Below, in pieces: positions 13,295-23,668 of a stretch of DNA of 64,000 nt. The DNA is from Candidatus Heimdallarchaeota archaeon (GTDB lineage: Archaea; Asgardarchaeota; Heimdallarchaeia; Hodarchaeales; Hodarchaeaceae), in NCBI GenBank assembly GCA_020353515.1, contig CP070695.1, forward strand, positions 2,706,155 through 2,770,154. Reading direction: 5' to 3'. A program made the position numbers and the translations under genes. The notes under the pieces were generated by a model that saw nothing but the letters and a program-made list of their open reading frames with translations, did not search any database and had not been told where the DNA came from. The stretch's first letter is position 1, and each line of letters starts with the position of its first letter.

Positions 13295-14539
13295 GTGAGA
13301 GGCTTACTATTGAATCAATACGATAATTCCGATGTAACTTTAGATGAGATATTCGAGGGATATCTGAAATCGCCTAAATTATTTAAACGACGCGATGTTC
13401 TTGACAGTTCTTTTGTTCCTGAAAATCTCCCCCATCGTACTGAACAAATCAAACAACTAGGATATATTTTGGCATCTGTTCTTCGTGGGGCTAAGCCTAG
13501 CAATATTTTATGCTTTGGAAAAACGGGAACGGGAAAAACAGCTGTATCTAAATATGTTTTAAACATTTTAGGCAAAAAAGCACCTCAACATGGGCTTCGA
13601 ATCGAAGTTGCTTATTTGAACTGCAATACGGTTGATACAAATTATCGGGTTTTTGCGGATTTATGTAGTACACTGGGTATTGAAGTACCCTTCACAGGTC
13701 TTGCAACAGATGAAGTCTTTACTCGGTTCAAACAAGGTTTAGATCAACGAGAATCCTTATTTATTGTTGTACTTGACGAAATAGATAGTTTGATTAAAAA
13801 ATCTGGAAATGAAACTCTCTATAATTTAACCCGAATTAATTCTGATCTAAGTCGTGCGAAAGTGAGTTTGATTGGTATATCTAACGATTTGAAATTTAAA
13901 GAATATCTGGATCCACGAGTATTATCATCACTATCAGAAGAAGAGCTTGTTTTCAAACCCTATGAAGCTCCTGAAATTACTGATATATTAGTTGAGAGAG
14001 CTGAATTAGCATTCCAAAACAAAACTTTATCTGAAGGTGTTATCAATATGATAGCAGCGATAGCTGCTCAAGAACATGGGGATGCTCGTAGAGCGATTGA
14101 CCTTTTACGTGTCTCTGCTGAGATAGCTGAGAGAGAAGGGACTGAAAAAATAAATCAGGCACATGTTAAAAAGGCACAAGGGGCAATAGAGAGAAATACT
14201 TTAACTGAGGTAATTAGTACCTTACCATTACAATCAAAAATGGTAATTCTATCCATCTATGTGTTAGAGAGAATTACTGATAATACTGAAACAGTTTCTA
14301 CTGGAGATGTCTATGAAGAATATGCACGTATATGCAAAGAGCTGGGAATGGATTCCTTAACCCAAAGGCGTGTTGGTGATCTAATTAACGAATTAGATGC
14401 TTTGGGGATAATTAGTGCCCGAGTTGTATCAAGAGGTAGACATGGCCGAACAAAAGAAATACGGTTTAGTATCCCAAAATCATTATTAGAAATGACTATA
14501 AAGGAAGATAAGATGATTTCAGGAAAGATTGCGCTATAA
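13295..14539 (+). CDS. cdc6: Orc1/Cdc6 replication initiator
   Basis: LPHRTEQI, GKTGTGKT, VLDEID, HGDARRAIDLL, C-terminal wHTH with SRGRHGRTK. Confidence 0.97.
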   Translation: MRGLLLNQYDNSDVTLDEIFEGYLKSPKLFKRRDVLDSSFVPENLPHRTEQIKQLGYILASVLRGAKPSNILCFGKTGTGKTAVSKYVLNILGKKAPQHGLRIEVAYLNCNTVDTNYRVFADLCSTLGIEVPFTGLATDEVFTRFKQGLDQRESLFIVVLDEIDSLIKKSGNETLYNLTRINSDLSRAKVSLIGISNDLKFKEYLDPRVLSSLSEEELVFKPYEAPEITDILVERAELAFQNKTLSEGVINMIAAIAAQEHGDARRAIDLLRVSAEIAEREGTEKINQAHVKKAQGAIERNTLTEVISTLPLQSKMVILSIYVLERITDNTETVSTGDVYEEYARICKELGMDSLTQRRVGDLINELDALGIISARVVSRGRHGRTKEIRFSIPKSLLEMTIKEDKMISGKIAL

Positions 14540-14570: not shown

Positions 14571-16190
14571 TTAAAGAATCTTAAGATCTATCATCTCTAC
14601 ATTTCCTGAGACTGCATCAAGAATTGGAATTATTCCAAGCGATGCCTTTCCTTCTAATTGGGTTTTTTTTTGGTTGTCTCGTTGGAAAGTTCCACATGTG
14701 ATTATTTTAATCCCCTTATATTCTTCGAAATATGCATGATGTAGATGTCCAGACACAATAACGTCAGGTACCTCATCTATAACTAGATAATCTCTTTTAA
14801 AAGGAGCAAGAGGATCATATGATCCATATTCAGGATAAAGATGACGATACTCTAAAAGGTGTTTTATGGCTAATGTTGGCTTTGCATTAGGTTTTTGGAA
14901 AGATTTTTGGAAAAGCTCATAATTCCCTTGTCCGTGAAATATTAACAACTTCATTTTTTCTAGGGATAACCGGAGAGGATTGCCATGACTCGTTAAATTC
15001 GGAATTGTTAAAAGAGCTTGGCTAATCTGTCTATCAATCGCTGGTTGAGGAAGAGCTGCCTGTGTTGCGTCATGTTCTCCTGGAATAATTAAAATTTGGA
15101 TATGAGATGGAATTTCCATTAATGCTTTTGCTAAGCCTTGGTATTGAGCTTGAAGTGAATATGAGGATATTTGTTCTTTTTGGTCTGAAAATCGTCCTAC
15201 TCCATCCACAAGGTCTCCAACAATAATTATTGTCTTAATTTCTTTAGCAATATTTTTATAAATCGGATCCAGATCCTGTAAAGTTAAAAACTTGATTAAT
15301 TTTGCGAAAACACTACGTGAAAAGTATTTTGATCCAAAATGTAGATCAGCTATGAATAAAAGTTTATGTGGATTTTTAATAGGGTTAAATTGGGTAGGTG
15401 AAAATCCTGGTCTGATAATGTCTCTTCCCCAAAAAGCAGTAATATCCCCCCCTCTAAAATTTTTTGGCAAAATCCCTGATATTCCTATAACAGTATCTCG
15501 GATGATATCTCGATATTCAGGGAAACTTGGACTATCTTGGACCATCACACAATTAGTAATTATTCCACTTTTAGGATCCTCTAATTGAATAACAAACTTA
15601 TTGGTATGCAGTACCCTGGTATCTTGAACCATCCCAATGAGGATTCCACTTTTATCTTTAGGAATTTCTTCTTCTCGCATTTCACTATCTAAAATCGCAT
15701 CAGAATCGTCAAAATTCTCCATAAAAATGCTTGAAAGCTGTTCAAAGCGATTTTGAAATAATTGTCGAAAAGCTGAGAAATCTGGTTTAGCAGAAGCTTT
15801 TTCTGGAATGTCTAGTTTTACAGTTATTTGCGAAGAAGGGTGAGGAACAGTCTGAGTAAAGTCTTGTTCTATCTGAAGTTCGTCAGATTGCACTAATGAT
15901 TTATTTGTCTCTTCTTTAACCGCTCTATCAGTCTTCTCAATGGATAGCTTGGTAGATTTGCCTATTTTTACCGCATTATTCCCATTCACAGATTGAATAG
16001 ACGAATCAAGAGGCTCTAGATATTTTTCTATTAATGGTAGATTTAATACAGGAATATTTGGAGGGATTTTCATAATTTTTTCTCTGAGAGTCTTTTCAGA
16101 GATTTCTTTCTGTAGAATATGATCTAGAGCATCAGCTGCAATATTGAAATTGTACTCTAAGAAAATTCTGATTAACTTCGTTCTGTCCAA
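14571..16190 (-). CDS. DNA polymerase D small subunit DP1
   Basis: FQNRFEQL, OB fold (LEDP.SG), calcineurin-like motifs DLHFGS, GDLVDG, PGEHD, HG, GHLH, D.LVIDEVPD. Confidence 0.9.
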   Translation of the reverse strand: MDRTKLIRIFLEYNFNIAADALDHILQKEISEKTLREKIMKIPPNIPVLNLPLIEKYLEPLDSSIQSVNGNNAVKIGKSTKLSIEKTDRAVKEETNKSLVQSDELQIEQDFTQTVPHPSSQITVKLDIPEKASAKPDFSAFRQLFQNRFEQLSSIFMENFDDSDAILDSEMREEEIPKDKSGILIGMVQDTRVLHTNKFVIQLEDPKSGIITNCVMVQDSPSFPEYRDIIRDTVIGISGILPKNFRGGDITAFWGRDIIRPGFSPTQFNPIKNPHKLLFIADLHFGSKYFSRSVFAKLIKFLTLQDLDPIYKNIAKEIKTIIIVGDLVDGVGRFSDQKEQISSYSLQAQYQGLAKALMEIPSHIQILIIPGEHDATQAALPQPAIDRQISQALLTIPNLTSHGNPLRLSLEKMKLLIFHGQGNYELFQKSFQKPNAKPTLAIKHLLEYRHLYPEYGSYDPLAPFKRDYLVIDEVPDVIVSGHLHHAYFEEYKGIKIITCGTFQRDNQKKTQLEGKASLGIIPILDAVSGNVEMIDLKIL

Positions 16191-16417: not shown

Positions 16418-18601
16418 TTATGGAGTAATGGCTGCGGGGGGGATAATATCCCATCTGATTCGCCAGATATATATCCATTTATGTGCTGTCCGATAAGCAA
16501 GCTCATAGTATTGCGAATATTCTGCATATTCTTCTGAGAATCCTTTTGTTGCAGGAGCATTTTCTGTTATAGGGGCATATGATTTGATACGCTCAAATGT
16601 TTCACTTGAAACTCCTTCTTCATCGGAGGCTCCACCACCTGTGAATAAAGACCAAAATACAGAGTCATAAAATTGGTCGATATATCCCTGGATATACTGT
16701 TGTCGTGAATCATACTTAAGGTAGTCATCTTGATCTATTTTGACGATATTACCGTTGGCCATTCCAATTCTGATAAACCAAGGAACTTTCCCCAAGTCAG
16801 AATCTAATTGCCACCACCCGTCGGAGACTAAAAGGACGAGATAGGTGACATCGTAGATTTTCGAGATTTTTAATGAGTCTCTAGGATTAAGTACTAACAT
16901 ACATCCAATATTACCTATTTTTGTTTTATTAATCGTCGCATTATCTACCAAAATGGTTGTATTTGAATTCCCACTAATCCAATATCCGTAATCCCACCAA
17001 GAGGCAACAACATCATTTGGCCCTGTATTATAATCTAACCAACTGATGGCTTCTTGCCAGTCATATCCTAGAATAACCTGTTGTCCTGTATAAACTGGAG
17101 TGGAGATAGACGGTGCTTGTGTTGACTTGGCCGCTTGGTCACTAGCGTTAACAAGAGCGAACATTGCAATGATCCCTATAAATACAAACGCTATCGCAGT
17201 TTGCTCATTTGATAATGGTTGGATGAAGCGAGTTTTTCTACGACTTAATGCGAAGCGTTCTTGAAAAGCAAGTACAAAAGGTAGAAGGGTCTGGTCAATA
17301 GCTTGTGCTGCTAGTAATGAAACTGCTGGAGCTAATATCAAAGCTAATCTTACCATAGAGCCCGCAAAATATATTGCTGTAAATCCAAATAATAATAGGA
17401 GGAAATTCCTTTCAGTTGGTTTTAGATAGAGAAAATAAATACTCAGTGGTAAAAGAAAAATCAAAACTCCTGTGTTTCTGAAAAATGTCGACCATGTTAC
17501 TATTTGATGTTCACTAACTGATTTCAAGATTGGTGTTGTATCACGATATATTGGTAGAAGCACGGTAATAAATTTTGATGCCATATTTCCTAGGACACCG
17601 GTTGTAAATAAGACAATAACTCCTATGATTGCTGCTACTGCAATAAAAGGAATAAGTGTTCTAAAACGTGCACGAATTTTACTTGTGCTATAAAATGAGT
17701 CGACATAACGATAAATCTCTGCTAGGGCTACTAGTCCAAGAACACCTAGAGTTGACAAACTATCCGTATTCAGGAGAGATTTAGCACCATTTTTTGGGAT
17801 TAATATCATAATAAAGAATCCTAGAAGAATTGATCCTCCGTATGAAAGGAATAATCTATCTGAATGTTTTCTAAGTAGTAACATAACAAATGCATGAAGT
17901 GCTAATAAGTTGAAGACATAAGTTGCGGCACCCCATGATGCTGATAGGATACCTAAGCATATACCCGCAAGCATCGTTGAACTAAGGGATCCTGTTCGAA
18001 GAGATCGTGCATAAAAATACAAAGTAAGTATAAGGAAAAGGATTCCTAGTGATTCATGATCAAAAAAGCCTACTACGGTTCGTTGTAGATGTCCAGGCGA
18101 AATTGCCAGAAATAAAGCTGCAAGAATGCCAATTTTTTTGTTTCCTAGTTCTTTTCCTAAAAAATACATTGCTACACAGGTTAGGGCTCCCATCAGAGCA
18201 GGTTGATAATAACAGATTACCATTAATGAAATATCAAGTCCCAAAAAACTGGTTAGTTGATGTATTAGGACTGCAGAAAGGGGCGTACCAATGTATTGGT
18301 TTTTTCCCCAGAAACGGCCTTCAGGGTACCAAGTTTGGGGATCTACCCAGCTAAGAAATGCTGCTAGACCATTTTCTTCTATGTACATTGCAGCACGTAG
18401 TTGTGAGTATGGATCGTTTGCAGTAAGAATAATTTCATATGCTGGTTCATGAAGAACCGCAAAAATTCTAACAAGATAAGCTAAAATGAAAATTAATACG
18501 AGTGAGGTATATAGAAGTACCATTTCTTTATTAATTGATGTAACAGCTGTATTATAGCGATTTCTGAGGTCGTTTATGATTCTATCGATGAAAACAGGCA
18601 T
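16418..18601 (-). CDS. aglB: Oligosaccharyltransferase catalytic subunit AglB/STT3
   Basis: Multi-TM protein; DPY, WYPEGR, FDHE, SVSEHQ, WWDYG, DNAT, DLGKVPWFIRI (STT3-like DK motif). Confidence 0.96.
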   Translation of the reverse strand: MPVFIDRIINDLRNRYNTAVTSINKEMVLLYTSLVLIFILAYLVRIFAVLHEPAYEIILTANDPYSQLRAAMYIEENGLAAFLSWVDPQTWYPEGRFWGKNQYIGTPLSAVLIHQLTSFLGLDISLMVICYYQPALMGALTCVAMYFLGKELGNKKIGILAALFLAISPGHLQRTVVGFFDHESLGILFLILTLYFYARSLRTGSLSSTMLAGICLGILSASWGAATYVFNLLALHAFVMLLLRKHSDRLFLSYGGSILLGFFIMILIPKNGAKSLLNTDSLSTLGVLGLVALAEIYRYVDSFYSTSKIRARFRTLIPFIAVAAIIGVIVLFTTGVLGNMASKFITVLLPIYRDTTPILKSVSEHQIVTWSTFFRNTGVLIFLLPLSIYFLYLKPTERNFLLLLFGFTAIYFAGSMVRLALILAPAVSLLAAQAIDQTLLPFVLAFQERFALSRRKTRFIQPLSNEQTAIAFVFIGIIAMFALVNASDQAAKSTQAPSISTPVYTGQQVILGYDWQEAISWLDYNTGPNDVVASWWDYGYWISGNSNTTILVDNATINKTKIGNIGCMLVLNPRDSLKISKIYDVTYLVLLVSDGWWQLDSDLGKVPWFIRIGMANGNIVKIDQDDYLKYDSRQQYIQGYIDQFYDSVFWSLFTGGGASDEEGVSSETFERIKSYAPITENAPATKGFSEEYAEYSQYYELAYRTAHKWIYIWRIRWDIIPPAAITP

Positions 18602-18771: not shown

Positions 18772-19119
18772 ATGGTGTCAACGATGACAAAACAACCCAT
18801 GGATGTTGATTTAGAGTTATTTGAGCTAATGTTTCCAGGAAAACTTGTCGGTAAAGCGGTTATTGATGCAAATGCCCGTATGATTGGCGTTATTCGTAAT
18901 GTTAGAATTCAAATTCCTTCTCCAACTATTAGTTTGACTATAAAAGGTCTTGATACAGAATTTACAGTGAAATCCGAAAATATTCAAGCAGTTGGTAATG
19001 TAGTACAATTGAATGTTACAATAAAACATTCAGAACCTATTGAAATCAATGATATCATTAAGTTGAGAACAGAAATACAGGAAGAGTTAATTCATTTTTT
19101 TTCCCTTCTAAAATCTTAG
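18772..19119 (+). CDS. PRC-barrel domain protein
   Basis: LVGKAVIDANARMIGVIRNV...IQAVGNVVQL. Confidence 0.75.
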   Translation: MVSTMTKQPMDVDLELFELMFPGKLVGKAVIDANARMIGVIRNVRIQIPSPTISLTIKGLDTEFTVKSENIQAVGNVVQLNVTIKHSEPIEINDIIKLRTEIQEELIHFFSLLKS

Positions 19120-19183
19120 AGAGAACTCGGATACTTTCTAGAATTCCTCTTAAGCAATTCAATAAGTAGTAATTGGGAAACAT

Positions 19184-20047
19184 ATGGTAAATTTAAATCG
19201 TTTGACATCCTGGACAAGACATTTACGGACTAGACGTGGTAATAGAATTTTCTTACAAGCTGTTAAAATGTTTAAATTCCATATGACACCATTTTCCATA
19301 TTATTACAGAGAATTTGTGAAGTTCTTGAGGAATACGATTCCAAATTTACATTTCCTCTTACAGCATCAACAGCTCAATCTAATCCTATACTAGTCAAAT
19401 GGTTGAAATCATCTCACCATGAAATTGCTATTCATGGATATAAACATGTGCGATATCCTTTTCTTTCTACTAAACACCAATTCTTAGAAATCAAAAAATC
19501 TATCCAAGTTTTTAAGGAATTAAGAATTCCCTTCCAAGGTTTTAGAGCACCATATAACCTATATTCAGAGACGACCAAGGAATTAATAAACAAATTTGGT
19601 TTTAAATGGGATGCAGGAATAGGTTTTCATCGTGATTATAGGAATGGGCACAAATTCTTTAAGATTCGGTTAAAGGATGGAAAAGAATCATCCTACACTT
19701 GTATTCCTTTATGTGAATGGTCTGATGACCGTATGATTGATAATTATAACCTCTCATCAGAAAAAATGGCGAAAATACTGATTTACCATTTAGAAAAAGC
19801 TAGAAAGGTTAATGGACTTATTATGTATGATCTTCATCCAATAAGAATTGGACAAAATCAATATATTCAAAGTTTGAGAAGGTTACTCATTCATGCAAAC
19901 AAGATTGATGCTTGGATTCCAACAATTTCAGAGGCAATAAACTACTGGTCTAAGCATCATCAGTGGAAAGACTCTGCTCCTGTCTGCTGTCTACTAACAG
20001 GAGATATTGATAATTTCACATTTTTTGATTACATAAGAAGAATTTAA
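19184..20047 (+). CDS. Polysaccharide deacetylase (NodB/CE4 family)
   Basis: HEIAIHGYKH, GFRAPY, DLHP; the acidic motif LTGDID appears near the C-terminus. Confidence 0.8.
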   Translation: MVNLNRLTSWTRHLRTRRGNRIFLQAVKMFKFHMTPFSILLQRICEVLEEYDSKFTFPLTASTAQSNPILVKWLKSSHHEIAIHGYKHVRYPFLSTKHQFLEIKKSIQVFKELRIPFQGFRAPYNLYSETTKELINKFGFKWDAGIGFHRDYRNGHKFFKIRLKDGKESSYTCIPLCEWSDDRMIDNYNLSSEKMAKILIYHLEKARKVNGLIMYDLHPIRIGQNQYIQSLRRLLIHANKIDAWIPTISEAINYWSKHHQWKDSAPVCCLLTGDIDNFTFFDYIRRI

Positions 20048-20066
20048 GTTAAATGACTGGTTTAAG

Positions 20067-20558
20067 ATGTCACATTGGTCTATAGGAATAGATATAACAG
20101 ACATAAAACGTTTTAGGGAGTACCCACTGTCAAGACATTCACGTTTCTATGACCGAGTATTTAATGAATATGAATTCAGATATTGTACTGATCATTCTGA
20201 CCCTTATCCCCATTTTGCTGGAATTTTTGCAGCAAAAGAAGCAGTATTCAAAGCAGTGGGAAAATTTTTCCCCCTTTCTTTATTTCAAATTTCCATTCAT
20301 CATGATGAAAAAGGAAGACCCACTGTTTGGCTAGAAAAAAATGATAAAATCCCTCAATTGGAAAATAAATCACAAAAAAACTTTGAGAATCTTGTTGTTC
20401 AAGTCAGTATCACACACTCCAGTGCCCTAGCTATGGCTTGGGCATTGGCATTCTTAAAAACTTCTCAAAATGACACACTAGAGGGATTAGATCGATTGAA
20501 AGGTGAATTACAGAGAGAGATTTGTAATGAGTTCGTCGAACATCGATGTACTTCGTAA
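20067..20558 (+). CDS. acpS: Holo-ACP synthase (AcpS-type 4'-phosphopantetheinyl transferase)
   Basis: IGIDI, FAAKEAVFKA, GRP, VSITHS. Confidence 0.92.
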   Translation: MSHWSIGIDITDIKRFREYPLSRHSRFYDRVFNEYEFRYCTDHSDPYPHFAGIFAAKEAVFKAVGKFFPLSLFQISIHHDEKGRPTVWLEKNDKIPQLENKSQKNFENLVVQVSITHSSALAMAWALAFLKTSQNDTLEGLDRLKGELQREICNEFVEHRCTS

Positions 20559-22383
20559 ACAAGACGAGATACTTGAACTAGTTCGTAAGGAACCAAGTCA
20601 CAGAAATTATTGGAATGTTTACAAGAGGATTGAAAGATTAGATTTTTCTAATGTTAAAATTCCCTCTGAAGAGCGTATTAGCCTTACCTTGATGAGTTCG
20701 TTCACAATTGATCCGTTAGCTATTTATCTTGATATAGATTGTCGTTTAAACGGGCTTTTACCAAAGATTTATGTTGCACCATTTAATCGTTATCATGACG
20801 AGGTTCTTAATAAAAAGAGTGGTCTTTACAAGTCTCAACCAGATGTAGTACTCTTTTTTATTAGAGTAGAATCCTTAGTAGAAGATATTTTTAGAGTTAA
20901 CTATACTCAAATGAATAAAGAACATATAGAATCAGAATTGGATCGGATCATTCATGTGATCAAGCAACCAATAACTTCAATAATTCAACAGAGTGAAGCC
21001 TTAGTCATTTTCAGCAATTTCATCATTCCAACGTTTTCTCCTTTTGGTATTCTGGATAATAAACAAAACATTGGGTTTAAGAGATTCTATCAATTATTGA
21101 ACTTAAAGCTTGAAGAGTCCTTTCGTCAGAATAACCAAGTTTTCATCTTTGATCTAAATGAAGTCGCAAGTATCTATGGTAAAGATAACTATTTGAATCA
21201 TCCAATGAATTATCGCGGTTCAATACTTTTTAATGAATCGTTCTTATCACGTATCTCTTATCGTTTAATGGGATATATAAAAGCATTGAGATCAAAAAAT
21301 CGGAAATGCATTGTCCTTGATTTAGATAACACCCTTTGGGGGGGGATTATCGGAGAGGATGGATTTAAAGGAATCAAACTCAATATAAATTATCCTGGTA
21401 ATGAATTTGTAGATTTTCAAAGAACTATTTTAAGCTTAAACAGAAGAGGTGTCATTTTAGCAATTAATAGCAAAAATAATCTCGAAGATGCTTTAGAAGT
21501 CTTCCAGAAACATCCCTACATGCAAATAAGAGAAAATAACCTTGCAGCTCATCGTATAAATTGGAATGATAAGGTTCAAAACCTTATTGAATTAGCTAAG
21601 GAGATAAACATAGGTTTAGATAGCATTGTATTCATTGATGATAATCCTGTAGAACGTGCACGTGTGCAATCATCTCTTCCAGATGTTCTCGTCATGGATA
21701 TGCCTTCTAGTCCCGCTTTATTTCGTAAAACATTAGAGGGAATGAATGATTTCGATACATTATCGCTTACGGCTGAAGATCTTCAACGTAGTGAAATGTA
21801 TTATGCAAAGCGAAAAAGACACGATCTTGAAGAACATGTTCAAACACTTGAAGAATTCATTAAATCCTTGGAAATTGTTGTAAAAATAAAGAATACAGAT
21901 AAATTTGTACTCCCACGAGTTGCTAGTCTTTTAAACCGGACTAACCAATTTAATTTGACTACTAAACGTTACACTGAGACTGAAGTTCAACAAATGCATG
22001 ATGATCCAGATAAATTTCGTCTTTATACTCTACAAGCACAAGACAAATTTGGTGATGAAGGAATAGTTGGTATTGCTATTATTGAAGTAAAATCTCCAGA
22101 ATATTGGGTTATTGATAGCTTCCTCTTGAGCTGCAGGGTGATTGGTAGAAAAATTGAAACAACATTTCTAAATAAGATAATTAAAGATGCTAAATATTAT
22201 AGTGTGGAAAAGATAGAAGCTAAGTATGTTCCAACGAAAAAAAACTCATTAGTAAATGATTTCTACCTTAATCATGGTTTTCACTTAGCGCAAGAACTGA
22301 ATGGTGGAGAAACACATTGGATACTCCACTCAACTGATTTTAATGTAGTATATCCTAATTACATTCATGTAGTTGAAGAATGA
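20527..22383 (+). CDS. FkbH-like HAD-IIIC phosphatase/glyceryl-ACP transferase
   Basis: KCIVLDLDNTLWGG, SKNN, INWNDK, FIDDNPVER, RTNQFNLTT, DKFGDEG, LLSCRV; ATG at 20527 preferred over GTG at 20503. Confidence 0.93.
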   Translation: MSSSNIDVLRKQDEILELVRKEPSHRNYWNVYKRIERLDFSNVKIPSEERISLTLMSSFTIDPLAIYLDIDCRLNGLLPKIYVAPFNRYHDEVLNKKSGLYKSQPDVVLFFIRVESLVEDIFRVNYTQMNKEHIESELDRIIHVIKQPITSIIQQSEALVIFSNFIIPTFSPFGILDNKQNIGFKRFYQLLNLKLEESFRQNNQVFIFDLNEVASIYGKDNYLNHPMNYRGSILFNESFLSRISYRLMGYIKALRSKNRKCIVLDLDNTLWGGIIGEDGFKGIKLNINYPGNEFVDFQRTILSLNRRGVILAINSKNNLEDALEVFQKHPYMQIRENNLAAHRINWNDKVQNLIELAKEINIGLDSIVFIDDNPVERARVQSSLPDVLVMDMPSSPALFRKTLEGMNDFDTLSLTAEDLQRSEMYYAKRKRHDLEEHVQTLEEFIKSLEIVVKIKNTDKFVLPRVASLLNRTNQFNLTTKRYTETEVQQMHDDPDKFRLYTLQAQDKFGDEGIVGIAIIEVKSPEYWVIDSFLLSCRVIGRKIETTFLNKIIKDAKYYSVEKIEAKYVPTKKNSLVNDFYLNHGFHLAQELNGGETHWILHSTDFNVVYPNYIHVVEE

Positions 22384-22628
22384 TGGCTGATGTGCAAGTT
22401 ATATTTGAAGATGTAATTTCTAAGATACTTTTATTAGAGAATGAGCAAATTAATGACAATGTTTCTAGAGATAATCTTGAAGAGTGGGATTCAATGACTC
22501 ATCTCGCGTTAATTTCAGAGTTAGAACAGGTTTTTGACATCATTCTCTCTGATGATGACGTTACGGAGATTAAAACAATTGGTGATATAAAAAAAACCTT
22601 GAATAAATATGAAATTAAGGTAAAATAG
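22380..22628 (+). CDS. Acyl carrier protein
   Basis: 82 aa, acidic, WDSMTHLALISELEQVFDI (Ppant serine), TIGDI; overlaps the FkbH stop. Confidence 0.92.
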   Translation: MMADVQVIFEDVISKILLLENEQINDNVSRDNLEEWDSMTHLALISELEQVFDIILSDDDVTEIKTIGDIKKTLNKYEIKVK

Positions 22629-22769
22629 TAAACCATCTATAGAGAAGCCAATTAGATAAACCAAAGACTTCTTAATCATCCTGTAATTTATTCTTAATCA
22701 ATTGAGAGAAAAAATGCTTCCATTTTGATTAAGAAAGAAAAGAATCGGGATTGTCAAAAGAAGAATAAA

Positions 22770-23177
22770 TTACTTTTCTAGAAATTCTATAAGATAGCGA
22801 GTGGGTGTCCATACAAAAGCTATTCGACGTCCATTAAAAAGTGCTGAAGGTGTAGGCTTTTGGGCAATAACAGCATGATTTTCTCTAGCTTTTTTCAGCG
22901 CGTCTTCTAGAGAGGGAACCTCAATACAGTAGTGATAAAGGCGATTATTTTGCTTCAAAATGCTATCGATAGGAGATGGTACGTCTAAAGGTTCTACTAA
23001 TTCAAGTAAACAGCTTTCAATTGGTTGTCCATTTATCGCTAGAAGTACCACCCTTACTTTCAATATTTTATCGTCAACAACAGGACTAACCTGCTTCATA
23101 CCCAGAGCTTGAATATGAAATTCTAAAGTTTTTTCTATTGAGGTTACAGCAACACCTACATGGTGTATCTTGGTCAT
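22770..23177 (-). CDS. VOC-family protein (methylmalonyl-CoA epimerase-like)
   Basis: IHHVGVAV, LELVEP, LYHYCIEV, LFNGRRIAF, LIEFLE. Confidence 0.85.
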   Translation of the reverse strand: MTKIHHVGVAVTSIEKTLEFHIQALGMKQVSPVVDDKILKVRVVLLAINGQPIESCLLELVEPLDVPSPIDSILKQNNRLYHYCIEVPSLEDALKKARENHAVIAQKPTPSALFNGRRIAFVWTPTRYLIEFLEK

Positions 23178-23185
23178 AAGCTATT

Positions 23186-23653
23186 TCATCCTTTTGGTGG
23201 TACTTTTTTAGGTCTTGGTAACTCAGAAACTACTCGTGCAGGATTACCTGCAGCGATTTTGAAGTCTGGTATATCCCGATTAACCACAGAACCAGCGGCT
23301 ATAATTGAACCTATGCCAATAGTTACTCCTGGAAGAATAATTGCCCCAGTTCCAATCCAAGCTCCTTGTTTGATGAGTACAGCTTGTGATGGTTGTTTAA
23401 ATATGTTTGTTTGGTGGTGATATGGACTTCCTCCTGAATGGGCTAAAATTGATACCATGGGGCCAACACTGACATCATCCTCAAGAGTAATCAAATGGGG
23501 AAACTCTCCATCAAAAAAAACTAAATTGGCAATATAGACTCGTTTACCAATCTTTACACCACATTTTCGCCATACACTAGCTCTAAATTGGTAAATAGGG
23601 GCAATCCAAGCAAGCATACGAAAAATTCTTCCTAAAGTTCTACCCAAGGACAC
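23186..23653 (-). CDS. Left-handed beta-helix (hexapeptide) acyltransferase
   Basis: GVKIGKRVYI, GAWIGTGAIILPGVTIG, AAGSVV, GNPARV. Confidence 0.9.
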   Translation of the reverse strand: MSLGRTLGRIFRMLAWIAPIYQFRASVWRKCGVKIGKRVYIANLVFFDGEFPHLITLEDDVSVGPMVSILAHSGGSPYHHQTNIFKQPSQAVLIKQGAWIGTGAIILPGVTIGIGSIIAAGSVVNRDIPDFKIAAGNPARVVSELPRPKKVPPKG

Positions 23654-23668
23654 TCAACAACCATTGGT

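Follow-up and report, generated by a model that had tools for sequence, protein, structure and literature searches.

A mobile archaeal gene cassette with a private acyl carrier protein and an FkbH-type protein, predicted to acylate a sugar-type acceptor

A block of six genes at positions 19184–23653 of a 64,000-nt window of DNA (positions 2,706,155–2,770,154 of the single closed contig, 4,943,496 bp, that makes up the genome of a Heimdallarchaeota archaeon, an Asgard of the Hodarchaeales type) encodes a CE4-type deacetylase-like protein, an AcpS-type phosphopantetheinyl transferase, a long FkbH-type protein, an acyl carrier protein (ACP), a protein of the VOC superfamily and a small hexapeptide acyltransferase of the left-handed beta-helix (LbH) class, which we refer to as HexAT. 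The explanation that we favour, with modest confidence, is that these genes form a self-contained, horizontally mobile cassette, in which the private AcpS, ACP and FkbH-type proteins would make a glycerate-derived acyl-ACP and HexAT would pass the acyl group to a sugar-type acceptor prepared by the CE4 enzyme, the VOC protein being optional.

Open reading frame (ORF) calls and profile searches show that six intact genes fill the interval, four on the plus strand converging on two on the minus strand (Table 1). The gene content and order reported in a first-pass annotation of this DNA, with deacetylase, acpS, fkbH-like and acp genes facing VOC and hexapeptide acyltransferase genes, are thereby borne out. 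The deacetylase and acpS genes are 19 nt apart, acpS overlaps fkbH, which in turn shares 4 nt with acp, and 8 nt separate the VOC and HexAT genes. The convergent acp and VOC stop codons lie 141 nt apart, and this spacer holds a perfect 13-nt inverted repeat with a 65-nt loop that could serve as a two-way terminator hairpin. Profile searches of the whole genome returned exactly one full FkbH match, one ACPS match and one PP-binding match, all of them inside the cassette; the carrier system of this organism therefore exists for the cassette alone. The earlier observation that the window lacks ketosynthase, polyketide synthase (PKS) and non-ribosomal peptide synthetase (NRPS) genes extends to the entire closed genome, in which no PKS, NRPS or fatty acid synthase (FAS) was found and the only ketosynthase-like signals were two weak thiolase-like ketoacyl-synt matches outside the cassette (28 and 20.8 bits).

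Within the genus, FkbH and ACPS are both present in the same 10 of 20 genomes and both missing from the other 10. In three congeners devoid of FkbH and AcpS (G119, G130 and G102), the genes for Cdc6, PolD small subunit, AglB and orf115 stand directly beside those for the Zn-ribbon protein and the aminoacyl-tRNA synthetase, with the two flanking genes, orf115 and Zn-ribbon, about 40–65 bp apart. Since the cassette-free genomes keep the same flanks, the whole block between these two genes represents a single insertion or deletion. A search of the cassette borders for direct or inverted repeats that might mark a mobile element gave only short matches of chance length. Overall, the observations support the view that the six genes are a functional unit, gained or lost together within the genus. 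The flanking orf115 has no Pfam or NCBIfam match; it is kept in the cassette-free genomes, and in most congeners its identity, 73–93%, is above that of most neighbours.

The unit recurs well beyond this genus. Neighbourhoods of 20 kb were taken around 20 FkbH genes from the phylum and all of their ORFs were clustered. Fourteen loci carry an FkbH gene of the same type: the one in the window and 13 from its own genus, a second family (f7) and the Thorarchaeota (f11). Exactly five gene families, namely the deacetylase, AcpS, FkbH, ACP and HexAT, are present in 14 out of 14 of these loci, which span three Asgard families; gene order and orientation vary between the families, and no further gene family is common to them. 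Hidden Markov models (HMMs) built from the cassette proteins and run on 80 further loci from species-representative genomes recovered the full set in Hodarchaeota/Heimdallarchaeota, Bathyarchaeia, Thorarchaeota and Nitrosopumilales. The survey thus establishes that the association noticed at one locus recurs as a five-gene core in four archaeal lineages, often with VOC. This frequent sixth gene is found at the hodarchaeal, f7 and Bathyarchaeia loci and at some of those from Thorarchaeota and Nitrosopumilales; in the Bathyarchaeia it adjoins the deacetylase gene. The deacetylase of the Nitrosopumilales is more distant and conventionally ordered (PF01522 plus DUF3473). DPANN archaea and many bacteria possess the FkbH–ACP pair, and there the presence of AcpS, VOC or a hexapeptide protein is variable.

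A second type of FkbH paralogue, about 30% identical and 610–640 residues long, was encountered at L031:9335–12147, L043:9316–12041, L029 (G211, same genus), L032–L034 and L044 (here and below, L, G and C denote our loci, genomes and contigs). In every case the gene that follows encodes a conserved protein of about 300 residues with no Pfam match, a sulfotransferase gene adjoins at one locus, and no ACP, AcpS, deacetylase or HexAT gene lies near the paralogue. In view of these different partners, we rejected it as a part of the system.

A FastTree phylogeny of 86 FkbH sequences unites the Asgard and Bathyarchaeia cassettes in a single clade (FastTree support 100), inside which the Bathyarchaeia group with the hodarchaeal and f7 sequences and not outside the Asgards (support 95). 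The Nitrososphaerota sequences fall in the other half of the tree, among those from DPANN archaea and bacteria. The phylogeny indicates that the cassette has moved between archaeal phyla. One sequence, L091 (CAYFJI010000092.1), bears the label Acidiferrobacteraceae and nests in the Nitrosopelagicus clade beside L105 (support 98); it is probably a mis-binned thaumarchaeal contig.

Nearly all archaea have been described as lacking ACP and its synthase (bioRxiv 10.1101/2024.07.05.601840). For the present phylum, the statement in the first-pass annotation that archaea generally lack ACP and AcpS is too strong: ACPS scores above its cut-off in 107 of 301 sampled genomes, on account of the cassette together with a giant protein of about 3,200–3,800 residues. 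The latter occurs in many Asgard genomes of families f3, f4, f6, f7, f14 and f27, for example at L127:10351–19845 on the minus strand (G196:C105), with similar frames in G045, G074, G213 and many others. Annotation of one example revealed an NMO-type enoyl reductase, ketosynthase, acyltransferase, ACP, ketoreductase, PKS-type dehydratase and Sfp-type phosphopantetheinyl transferase. The giant protein is a type I FAS/PKS-like megasynthase that includes its own phosphopantetheinyl transferase, and the present genome has none.

The FkbH-type protein belongs to TIGR01686, the family of glyceryl-S-ACP synthases, with a score of 319.6 bits against a cut-off of 146.65 over residues 267–595. Its HAD motif I (DxDxT) reads D273-L-D275-N-T, and the acyl-holding cysteine of the C-terminal domain is C544 in SCRV. 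These signature residues, to which the first-pass annotation drew attention, are intact, and an alignment of eight diverse archaeal FkbH homologues shows the DLDNT aspartates and the SCRV cysteine to be invariant. The N-terminal and HAD parts match BF1531 (PDB 3slr) with an E-value of 1.4e-46. We predict that the protein is a glyceryl-S-ACP synthase. The AcpS protein exceeds the cut-offs of TIGR00556 (69.5 versus 45.35) and TIGR00516 (62.0 versus 59.8) as well as that of ACPS, and its Mg/CoA-binding residues D9 and E58, the latter in K57-E58-A59, can be read from the translation, as can S38 of the ACP in its WDSM motif. Among 26 ACP orthologues, W36 and S38 are invariant and D37 is found in at least 90%; Ser38 is the predicted phosphopantetheine site. 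The ACP falls outside the housekeeping fatty-acid type (AcpP, TIGR00517, NF002xxx), for which its best score is 27.6 bits against cut-offs of 66–92, and is dedicated to the cassette.

HexAT is a member of the hexapeptide superfamily. Its catalytic-loop histidine, H72, is invariant in 26 orthologues, as is D48, and H72 would be the equivalent of His115 of LacA if a two-residue shift in the loop is allowed. The best NCBIfam matches are WcaF-type, heptaprenylglyceryl-phosphate and galactoside O-acetyltransferases, all under cut-off, and the protein falls well short of the WcaF and galactoside families (NF007797, 68.4 versus 192; NF007076, 61.5 versus 347; TIGR04008, 49.4 versus 326). Among solved proteins, it matches SACOL2570 (1.2e-19) and LacA (1.3e-16). 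Because its closest relatives are O-acetyltransferases of the WcaF, galactoside and maltose types, homology does not favour N-acylation, and the earlier proposal that a sugar is N-acylated is weakened to that extent.

The predicted donor of HexAT is the acylated ACP. Structure prediction for a complex of the HexAT trimer with the ACP gave a score of 0.55, the best control scoring 0.00, with partner predicted local distance difference test (pLDDT) values of at least 84; the runs agreed in no less than 92% of contacts. The prediction passed a mark that 58 of 80 solved complexes and 2 of 110 mismatched pairs also attained; scores of 0.60 or lower that reached it comprised 7 of the 80 solved complexes and both of the passing mismatches. 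As LbH–ACP complexes have already been solved, the result may reflect likeness to them, and we take it to lend weak support to a HexAT–ACP complex. No transmembrane or signal-like segment was found in any of the six cassette proteins, and the cassette has no MBOAT-type partner; acyl transfer should therefore be cytoplasmic. At the Thorarchaeota loci, a second and longer hexapeptide-repeat protein (about 290 residues), which falls in the BLAST cluster of HexAT, is encoded a few kilobases from the cassette (L037:5811–6689, L038:4272–5156, L040:5497–6354 and others).

The VOC protein, called epimerase-like in the first-pass annotation, scores 51.9 against the TIGR03081 cut-off of 114.95 for methylmalonyl-CoA epimerase, and a clostridial glyoxalase I (3hdp, 3e-13) is a closer solved relative than the human epimerase (3rmu, 2e-6). 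The assignment as a methylmalonyl-CoA epimerase is consequently not upheld. Candidate metal ligands are present at the four usual positions (H6, E59, H82 and E131). Methylmalonyl-CoA epimerase and glyoxalase I both abstract a proton next to a thioester-type carbonyl, so action of the VOC protein on glyceryl-S-ACP is chemically reasonable, and the protein may be an epimerase. We predict that it is an accessory protein that tailors the acyl thioester. Its presence is coupled to HexAT: across 27 Asgard and Bathyarchaeia loci, residue 49 of HexAT is glycine in 16 of 16 with VOC and serine in 11 of 11 without it. Residue 49 and VOC each require four changes on the FkbH tree, giving three to four independent pairs, all concordant. 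D48-G49 aligns to the D92-D93 loop of Escherichia coli LacA, which we take to be part of the acceptor site.

The CE4 assignment of the deacetylase-like protein stands as regards family, fold and motifs 2 and 3, but the canonical motif 1 aspartate pair is missing from its usual place. Foldseek (TM 0.69) and VIA (Z 23.1) both match the protein to 3rxz. Its AlphaFold2 model (pLDDT 93.2) is a NodB-homology barrel whose nearest structures are 3rxz, HP0310 and PuuE-type proteins, with a VIA Z of 18.1 to ArnD (8t0j); residues 1–32 are modelled as helical. The two histidines of motif 2 (H84 and H88) and the Arg-x-Pro of motif 3 (R121 and P123) are invariant in 25 orthologues. In all of the Asgard and Bathyarchaeia orthologues, the last strand (268–272) is followed by a conserved C-terminal LLTGDIDN(F/W), the GDID of which supplies D274 and D276. 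This segment is similar to the L-G-I-D-F-E-(E/D)-W at the N-terminus of the orthologues from Nitrosopumilales, which have the conventional order. The protein is probably circularly permuted, with the acidic pair shifted to the C-terminus, and GDID may substitute for motif 1. An in-silico rearrangement that placed the C-terminal piece first left the scores against an HMM of the Nitrosopumilales orthologues unchanged, the local alignment never having reached the motif.

The support for a sugar as the target comes only from genomic context in other organisms. On a Nitrosopumilus chromosome, the cassette is set among genes for an NDP-hexose 2,3-dehydratase, a GFO/IDH/MocA oxidoreductase of ketoreductase type, a DegT aminotransferase, GT4 and GT2 glycosyltransferases, a nucleotidyltransferase and a 4,6-dehydratase, that is, in an NDP-amino-sugar cluster. 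In Aneurinibacillus terranovensis (locus L120), FkbH, ACP and VOC genes lie beside those for flagellin, a Maf-like protein, NeuB, PseH- and PseG-like proteins, DegT and a methyltransferase; this locus is a flagellin pseudaminic-acid island. In Campylobacter jejuni, 2,3-di-O-methylglyceroyl pseudaminic acid has been found on flagellin and as the CMP-sugar (PMC3068675; bioRxiv 10.64898/2026.04.20.719630), so that glycerate-type acylation of a cytoplasmic nucleotide sugar is chemically documented. FkbH is not tied to the glyceroyl group in either of these reports. A literature search found nothing relevant linking FkbH to archaea, polysaccharides, flagellin or O-antigens, and no publication describing the cassette.

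From the gene content, signature residues, behaviour as a unit, distribution and context elsewhere, we infer a chemistry in which the individual steps, the acyl group, its N- or O-attachment and the acceptor would be as follows. AcpS would load phosphopantetheine onto Ser38 of the dedicated ACP. The FkbH-type enzyme would take in 1,3-bisphosphoglycerate, the HAD domain stripping the 3-phosphate, and would hold D-glycerate on Cys544 before handing it to the ACP. Where present, the VOC protein would work on the alpha-proton of the 2-hydroxyacyl thioester, most likely in a C2 epimerisation. The soluble LbH acyltransferase would then shift the C3 acyl group, through N or O, from the ACP to a cytoplasmic carbohydrate-type acceptor, for instance a nucleotide sugar or a lipid-linked sugar that has yet to be flipped, which the CE4-fold enzyme would have readied, most likely by removal of an acetyl group. 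In a more specific and distinctly tentative version, a cytoplasmic pathway so far undescribed would be common to several archaeal phyla, loading a glycolytic intermediate onto a private carrier protein and placing D- or L-glycerate on a sugar; an optional VOC epimerase would set the handedness, the Gly/Ser49 switch would read it and a permuted CE4 enzyme would prepare the acceptor. Such a pathway would be the first ACP-dependent route of glycan or sugar acylation in archaea and would take FkbH enzymes beyond polyketide and non-ribosomal peptide chemistry.

Several points weigh against this scheme. KFHM (31–34) stands in the deacetylase where TFDD is expected, CE4 pseudoenzymes are known, and one such protein, BA3943, is among the fold matches. 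The deacetylase is moreover kept even in Nitrosopumilus, where the amino sugar is apparently made de novo, and its role may therefore differ from the one proposed. The nearest characterised relatives of HexAT acylate hydroxyls from acetyl-CoA, a poor fit to deacetylation followed by N-acylation. The link between VOC and residue 49 rests on three to four independent events, too few for significance (sign test, p = 0.25), and our literature search brought up no biochemical data on any long FkbH protein in a glycan context. Finally, the flanks in the present genome and at the f7, Thorarchaeota and Bathyarchaeia loci consist of housekeeping or unrelated genes, not glycan genes. The neighbours in the window are genes for Cdc6/Orc1, PolD small subunit, AglB, a Zn-ribbon protein, a class I tRNA synthetase, RpoB, L10 and FtsY; the synthetase and Zn-ribbon genes are followed immediately downstream by HexAT and VOC, which share their strand. 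The f7 and Bathyarchaeia cassettes are surrounded by genes for TFB, TBP, Alba, a small GTPase, a tRNA methyltransferase and a transposase, and the Thorarchaeota flanks hold a geranylgeranyl-reductase-family gene, an HMG-CoA-reductase N-terminal-domain gene, a helicase, a purple acid phosphatase and a dehydrogenase.

AglB is among these neighbours, and the first-pass annotation proposed acyl transfer onto a de-N-acetylated sugar of the N-glycan or surface polysaccharide. In a specific version of this proposal, the target would be the N-glycan that depends on AglB: a dolichol-linked GlcNAc would lose its N-acetyl group and be N-glyceroylated before transfer to protein. The distance, given as about 0.6 kb, measures 583 bp from AglB to the deacetylase gene, and AglB is likewise adjacent in four congeners. 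A cytoplasmic location of all the cassette proteins would allow them to act on a lipid-linked precursor that has yet to be flipped, and the fold matches of the deacetylase include ArnD (Z 18.1), a CE4 enzyme whose substrate is a polyprenyl-phosphate sugar. The adjacency is nevertheless confined to one genus, where it is explained by insertion of the cassette into a housekeeping block (Cdc6, PolD small subunit and AglB on one side; Zn-ribbon, tRNA synthetase and RpoB on the other) that is unchanged in the cassette-free congeners. Half of the genus has AglB without the cassette, and no STT3 or other glycan gene was seen in the annotated Thorarchaeota, f7 and Bathyarchaeia flanks. The AglB neighbourhood is thus a matter of genus-level synteny and not of conserved linkage; the locus does not qualify as an AglB-linked N-glycan locus, we rejected the proposed functional tie as unsupported and we consider the N-glycan quite improbable as the target. 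There is an appreciable, if minor, chance that the acceptor is no glycan at all. It could be a soluble metabolite, such as a GlcN small molecule handled by deacetylation and acylation in the manner of mycothiol or bacillithiol, or a membrane lipid with an isoprenoid glycerol head group. The cassette has no glycosyltransferase or flippase and sits amid unrelated genes in the Asgard and Bathyarchaeia genomes; the Thorarchaeota loci lie near the geranylgeranyl-reductase-family and HMG-CoA-reductase N-terminal-domain genes; and HexAT matches the heptaprenylglyceryl-phosphate O-acetyltransferase model (4.4e-18). That match, however, reaches 65 bits against a cut-off of 300, and the lipid-gene neighbours are conserved within a single family, which may be plain synteny, and where the context proved informative, it was invariably that of a sugar or flagellin-glycan cluster.

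A further alternative, which we consider unlikely, concerns the acyl group: before transfer, glyceryl-S-ACP might be converted by VOC or another step to some other C3 unit, either by elimination, which would yield lactyl or pyruvyl, or by a glyoxalase-like 1,2-shift. FkbH-type loading domains feed lactate starters into some polyketide pathways (bryostatin-type modules), the product of glyoxalase I is a 2-hydroxyacyl thioester, and the VOC protein, as described above, lies nearer to glyoxalase I than to the epimerases and fails the epimerase cut-off. Yet the cassette has no dehydratase or ketoreductase and 11 of the 27 Asgard and Bathyarchaeia loci are without VOC, so that in many cassettes FkbH must make a donor that can be used without modification. 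Finally, the typically bacterial nature of the families and a CheckM-type contamination of 7.4% for the genome might raise the suspicion of bacterial contamination, a chimeric assembly or a decaying relic. We hold such an artefact to be extremely improbable. All frames are intact and the catalytic residues conserved, FkbH belongs to the supported Asgard and Bathyarchaeia clade, and the G+C content of the cassette (0.33–0.35) is like that of the rest of the window, which is even at 0.33–0.38 except for a dip to 0.286 at 10–12 kb. The genome is closed, and the block is found in identical archaeal flanks in several congeners at 54–93% protein identity; chimerism is accordingly very unlikely, and a chimeric contig was rejected. 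Homologues at 65–83% identity carry the labels Hodarchaeota, Heimdallarchaeota or Promethearchaeota.

The features discussed are collected in Table 1. Outside the cassette, the genes for Cdc6/Orc1 and PolD small subunit adjoin the most A+T-rich stretch of the window, the dip at 10–12 kb, and this may be a replication origin region.

Table 1. Positions of the cassette genes and of other features in the 64,000-nt window
Feature	Length (aa)	Position (strand)	Domains, matches or remarks
CE4/NodB-fold deacetylase-like protein	287	19184–20047 (+)	Polysacc_deac_1 PF01522, 4.2e-15, 56.2 bits (cut-off 23.1)
AcpS-type 4'-phosphopantetheinyl transferase	163	20067–20558 (+)	ACPS PF01648, 6.5e-18, 65.2 bits (cut-off 25)
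Long FkbH-type protein	618 from Met at 20527; 626 from GTG at 20503	20527–22383 (+)	FkbH_N, HAD-IIIC phosphatase and C-terminal Cys domain
Acyl carrier protein (ACP)	82	22380–22628 (+)	PP-binding PF00550, with DS serine, 25.4 bits (cut-off 20.8)
Inverted repeat		22683–22695 / 22761–22773	Within the ACP–VOC spacer
VOC-superfamily protein	135	22770–23177 (-)	Glyoxalase_4 PF13669, 6.5e-14, 52.6 bits
HexAT, small hexapeptide (LbH) acyltransferase	155	23186–23653 (-)	Hexapep PF00132, 2e-10, 40.3 bits (cut-off 27)
Cassette as insertion/deletion unit		19120–23668	From orf115 to Zn-ribbon gene
orf115	115	18772–19119 (+)	Between AglB and deacetylase
AglB		16418–18601 (-)	STT3, 3.3e-52
PolD small subunit		14571–16190	
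Cdc6/Orc1		13295–14539	

The ACP/AcpS pair of this organism solely serves a small cassette that has spread by transfer among Asgard archaea, Bathyarchaeia and ammonia-oxidising archaea. If the predicted chemistry holds, FkbH enzymes would be engaged in decorating envelopes or sugars, outside the synthesis of natural products. It would also account for glycerate-type acyl groups on microbial sugars and provide a simple marker for archaeal surface glycans, HexN or Hex plus 88 Da, for which the presence or absence of the cassette within one genus offers natural controls.

The cassette resembles several known systems. FkbH/OzmB-type synthases with stand-alone ACPs, as in the methoxymalonyl-ACP, tetronate, oxazolomycin and zwittermicin pathways, share with it the TIGR01686 family, the HAD DxDxT motif, the SCR cysteine and a dedicated small ACP encoded next door. 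In contrast to those pathways, the cassette resides in an archaeal genome with no ketosynthase, PKS, NRPS or FkbG/I/J/K-type tailoring genes, and its partners are a CE4-fold enzyme, an LbH acyltransferase and a VOC protein; its long FkbH form also has the extra FkbH_N domain seen in Bacteroides BF1531 (3slr). In the synthesis of Nod factors (NodB/NodF/NodA) and of lipid A (LpxC/LpxD), as proposed here, a deacetylase frees a sugar position that is re-acylated from a dedicated acyl-ACP, and there are parallels of family, NodB being a CE4 enzyme and LpxD an LbH acyl-ACP transferase. The cassette deacetylase differs from NodB, however, scoring 28.9 bits against a cut-off of 240, and is of the PuuE/HP0310/3rxz structural type and probably permuted; the acyl group would be a C3 hydroxy acid from a glycolytic intermediate and not a fatty acid.

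The closest relatives of HexAT, the LbH O-acetyltransferases of the WcaF, galactoside and maltose types, have their catalytic histidine in the loop that holds His72, but HexAT is about 45 residues shorter at the N-terminus and is tied genetically to an ACP and not to the use of acetyl-CoA. Among glycan systems, the flagellin island of Aneurinibacillus (L120) combines FkbH, ACP and VOC next to sugar-biosynthesis genes, and C. jejuni 11168, with its glyceroyl-modified pseudaminic acid, provides a glycerate-derived N-acyl group on a nucleotide-activated sugar (PMC3068675; bioRxiv 10.64898/2026.04.20.719630). The Asgard cassette differs from both in possessing its own AcpS, deacetylase and LbH transferase and in lying outside any sugar locus. 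We conclude that it is not a new kind of system but a combination of known kinds, joining FkbH-type loaders to the logic of deacetylation followed by acylation.

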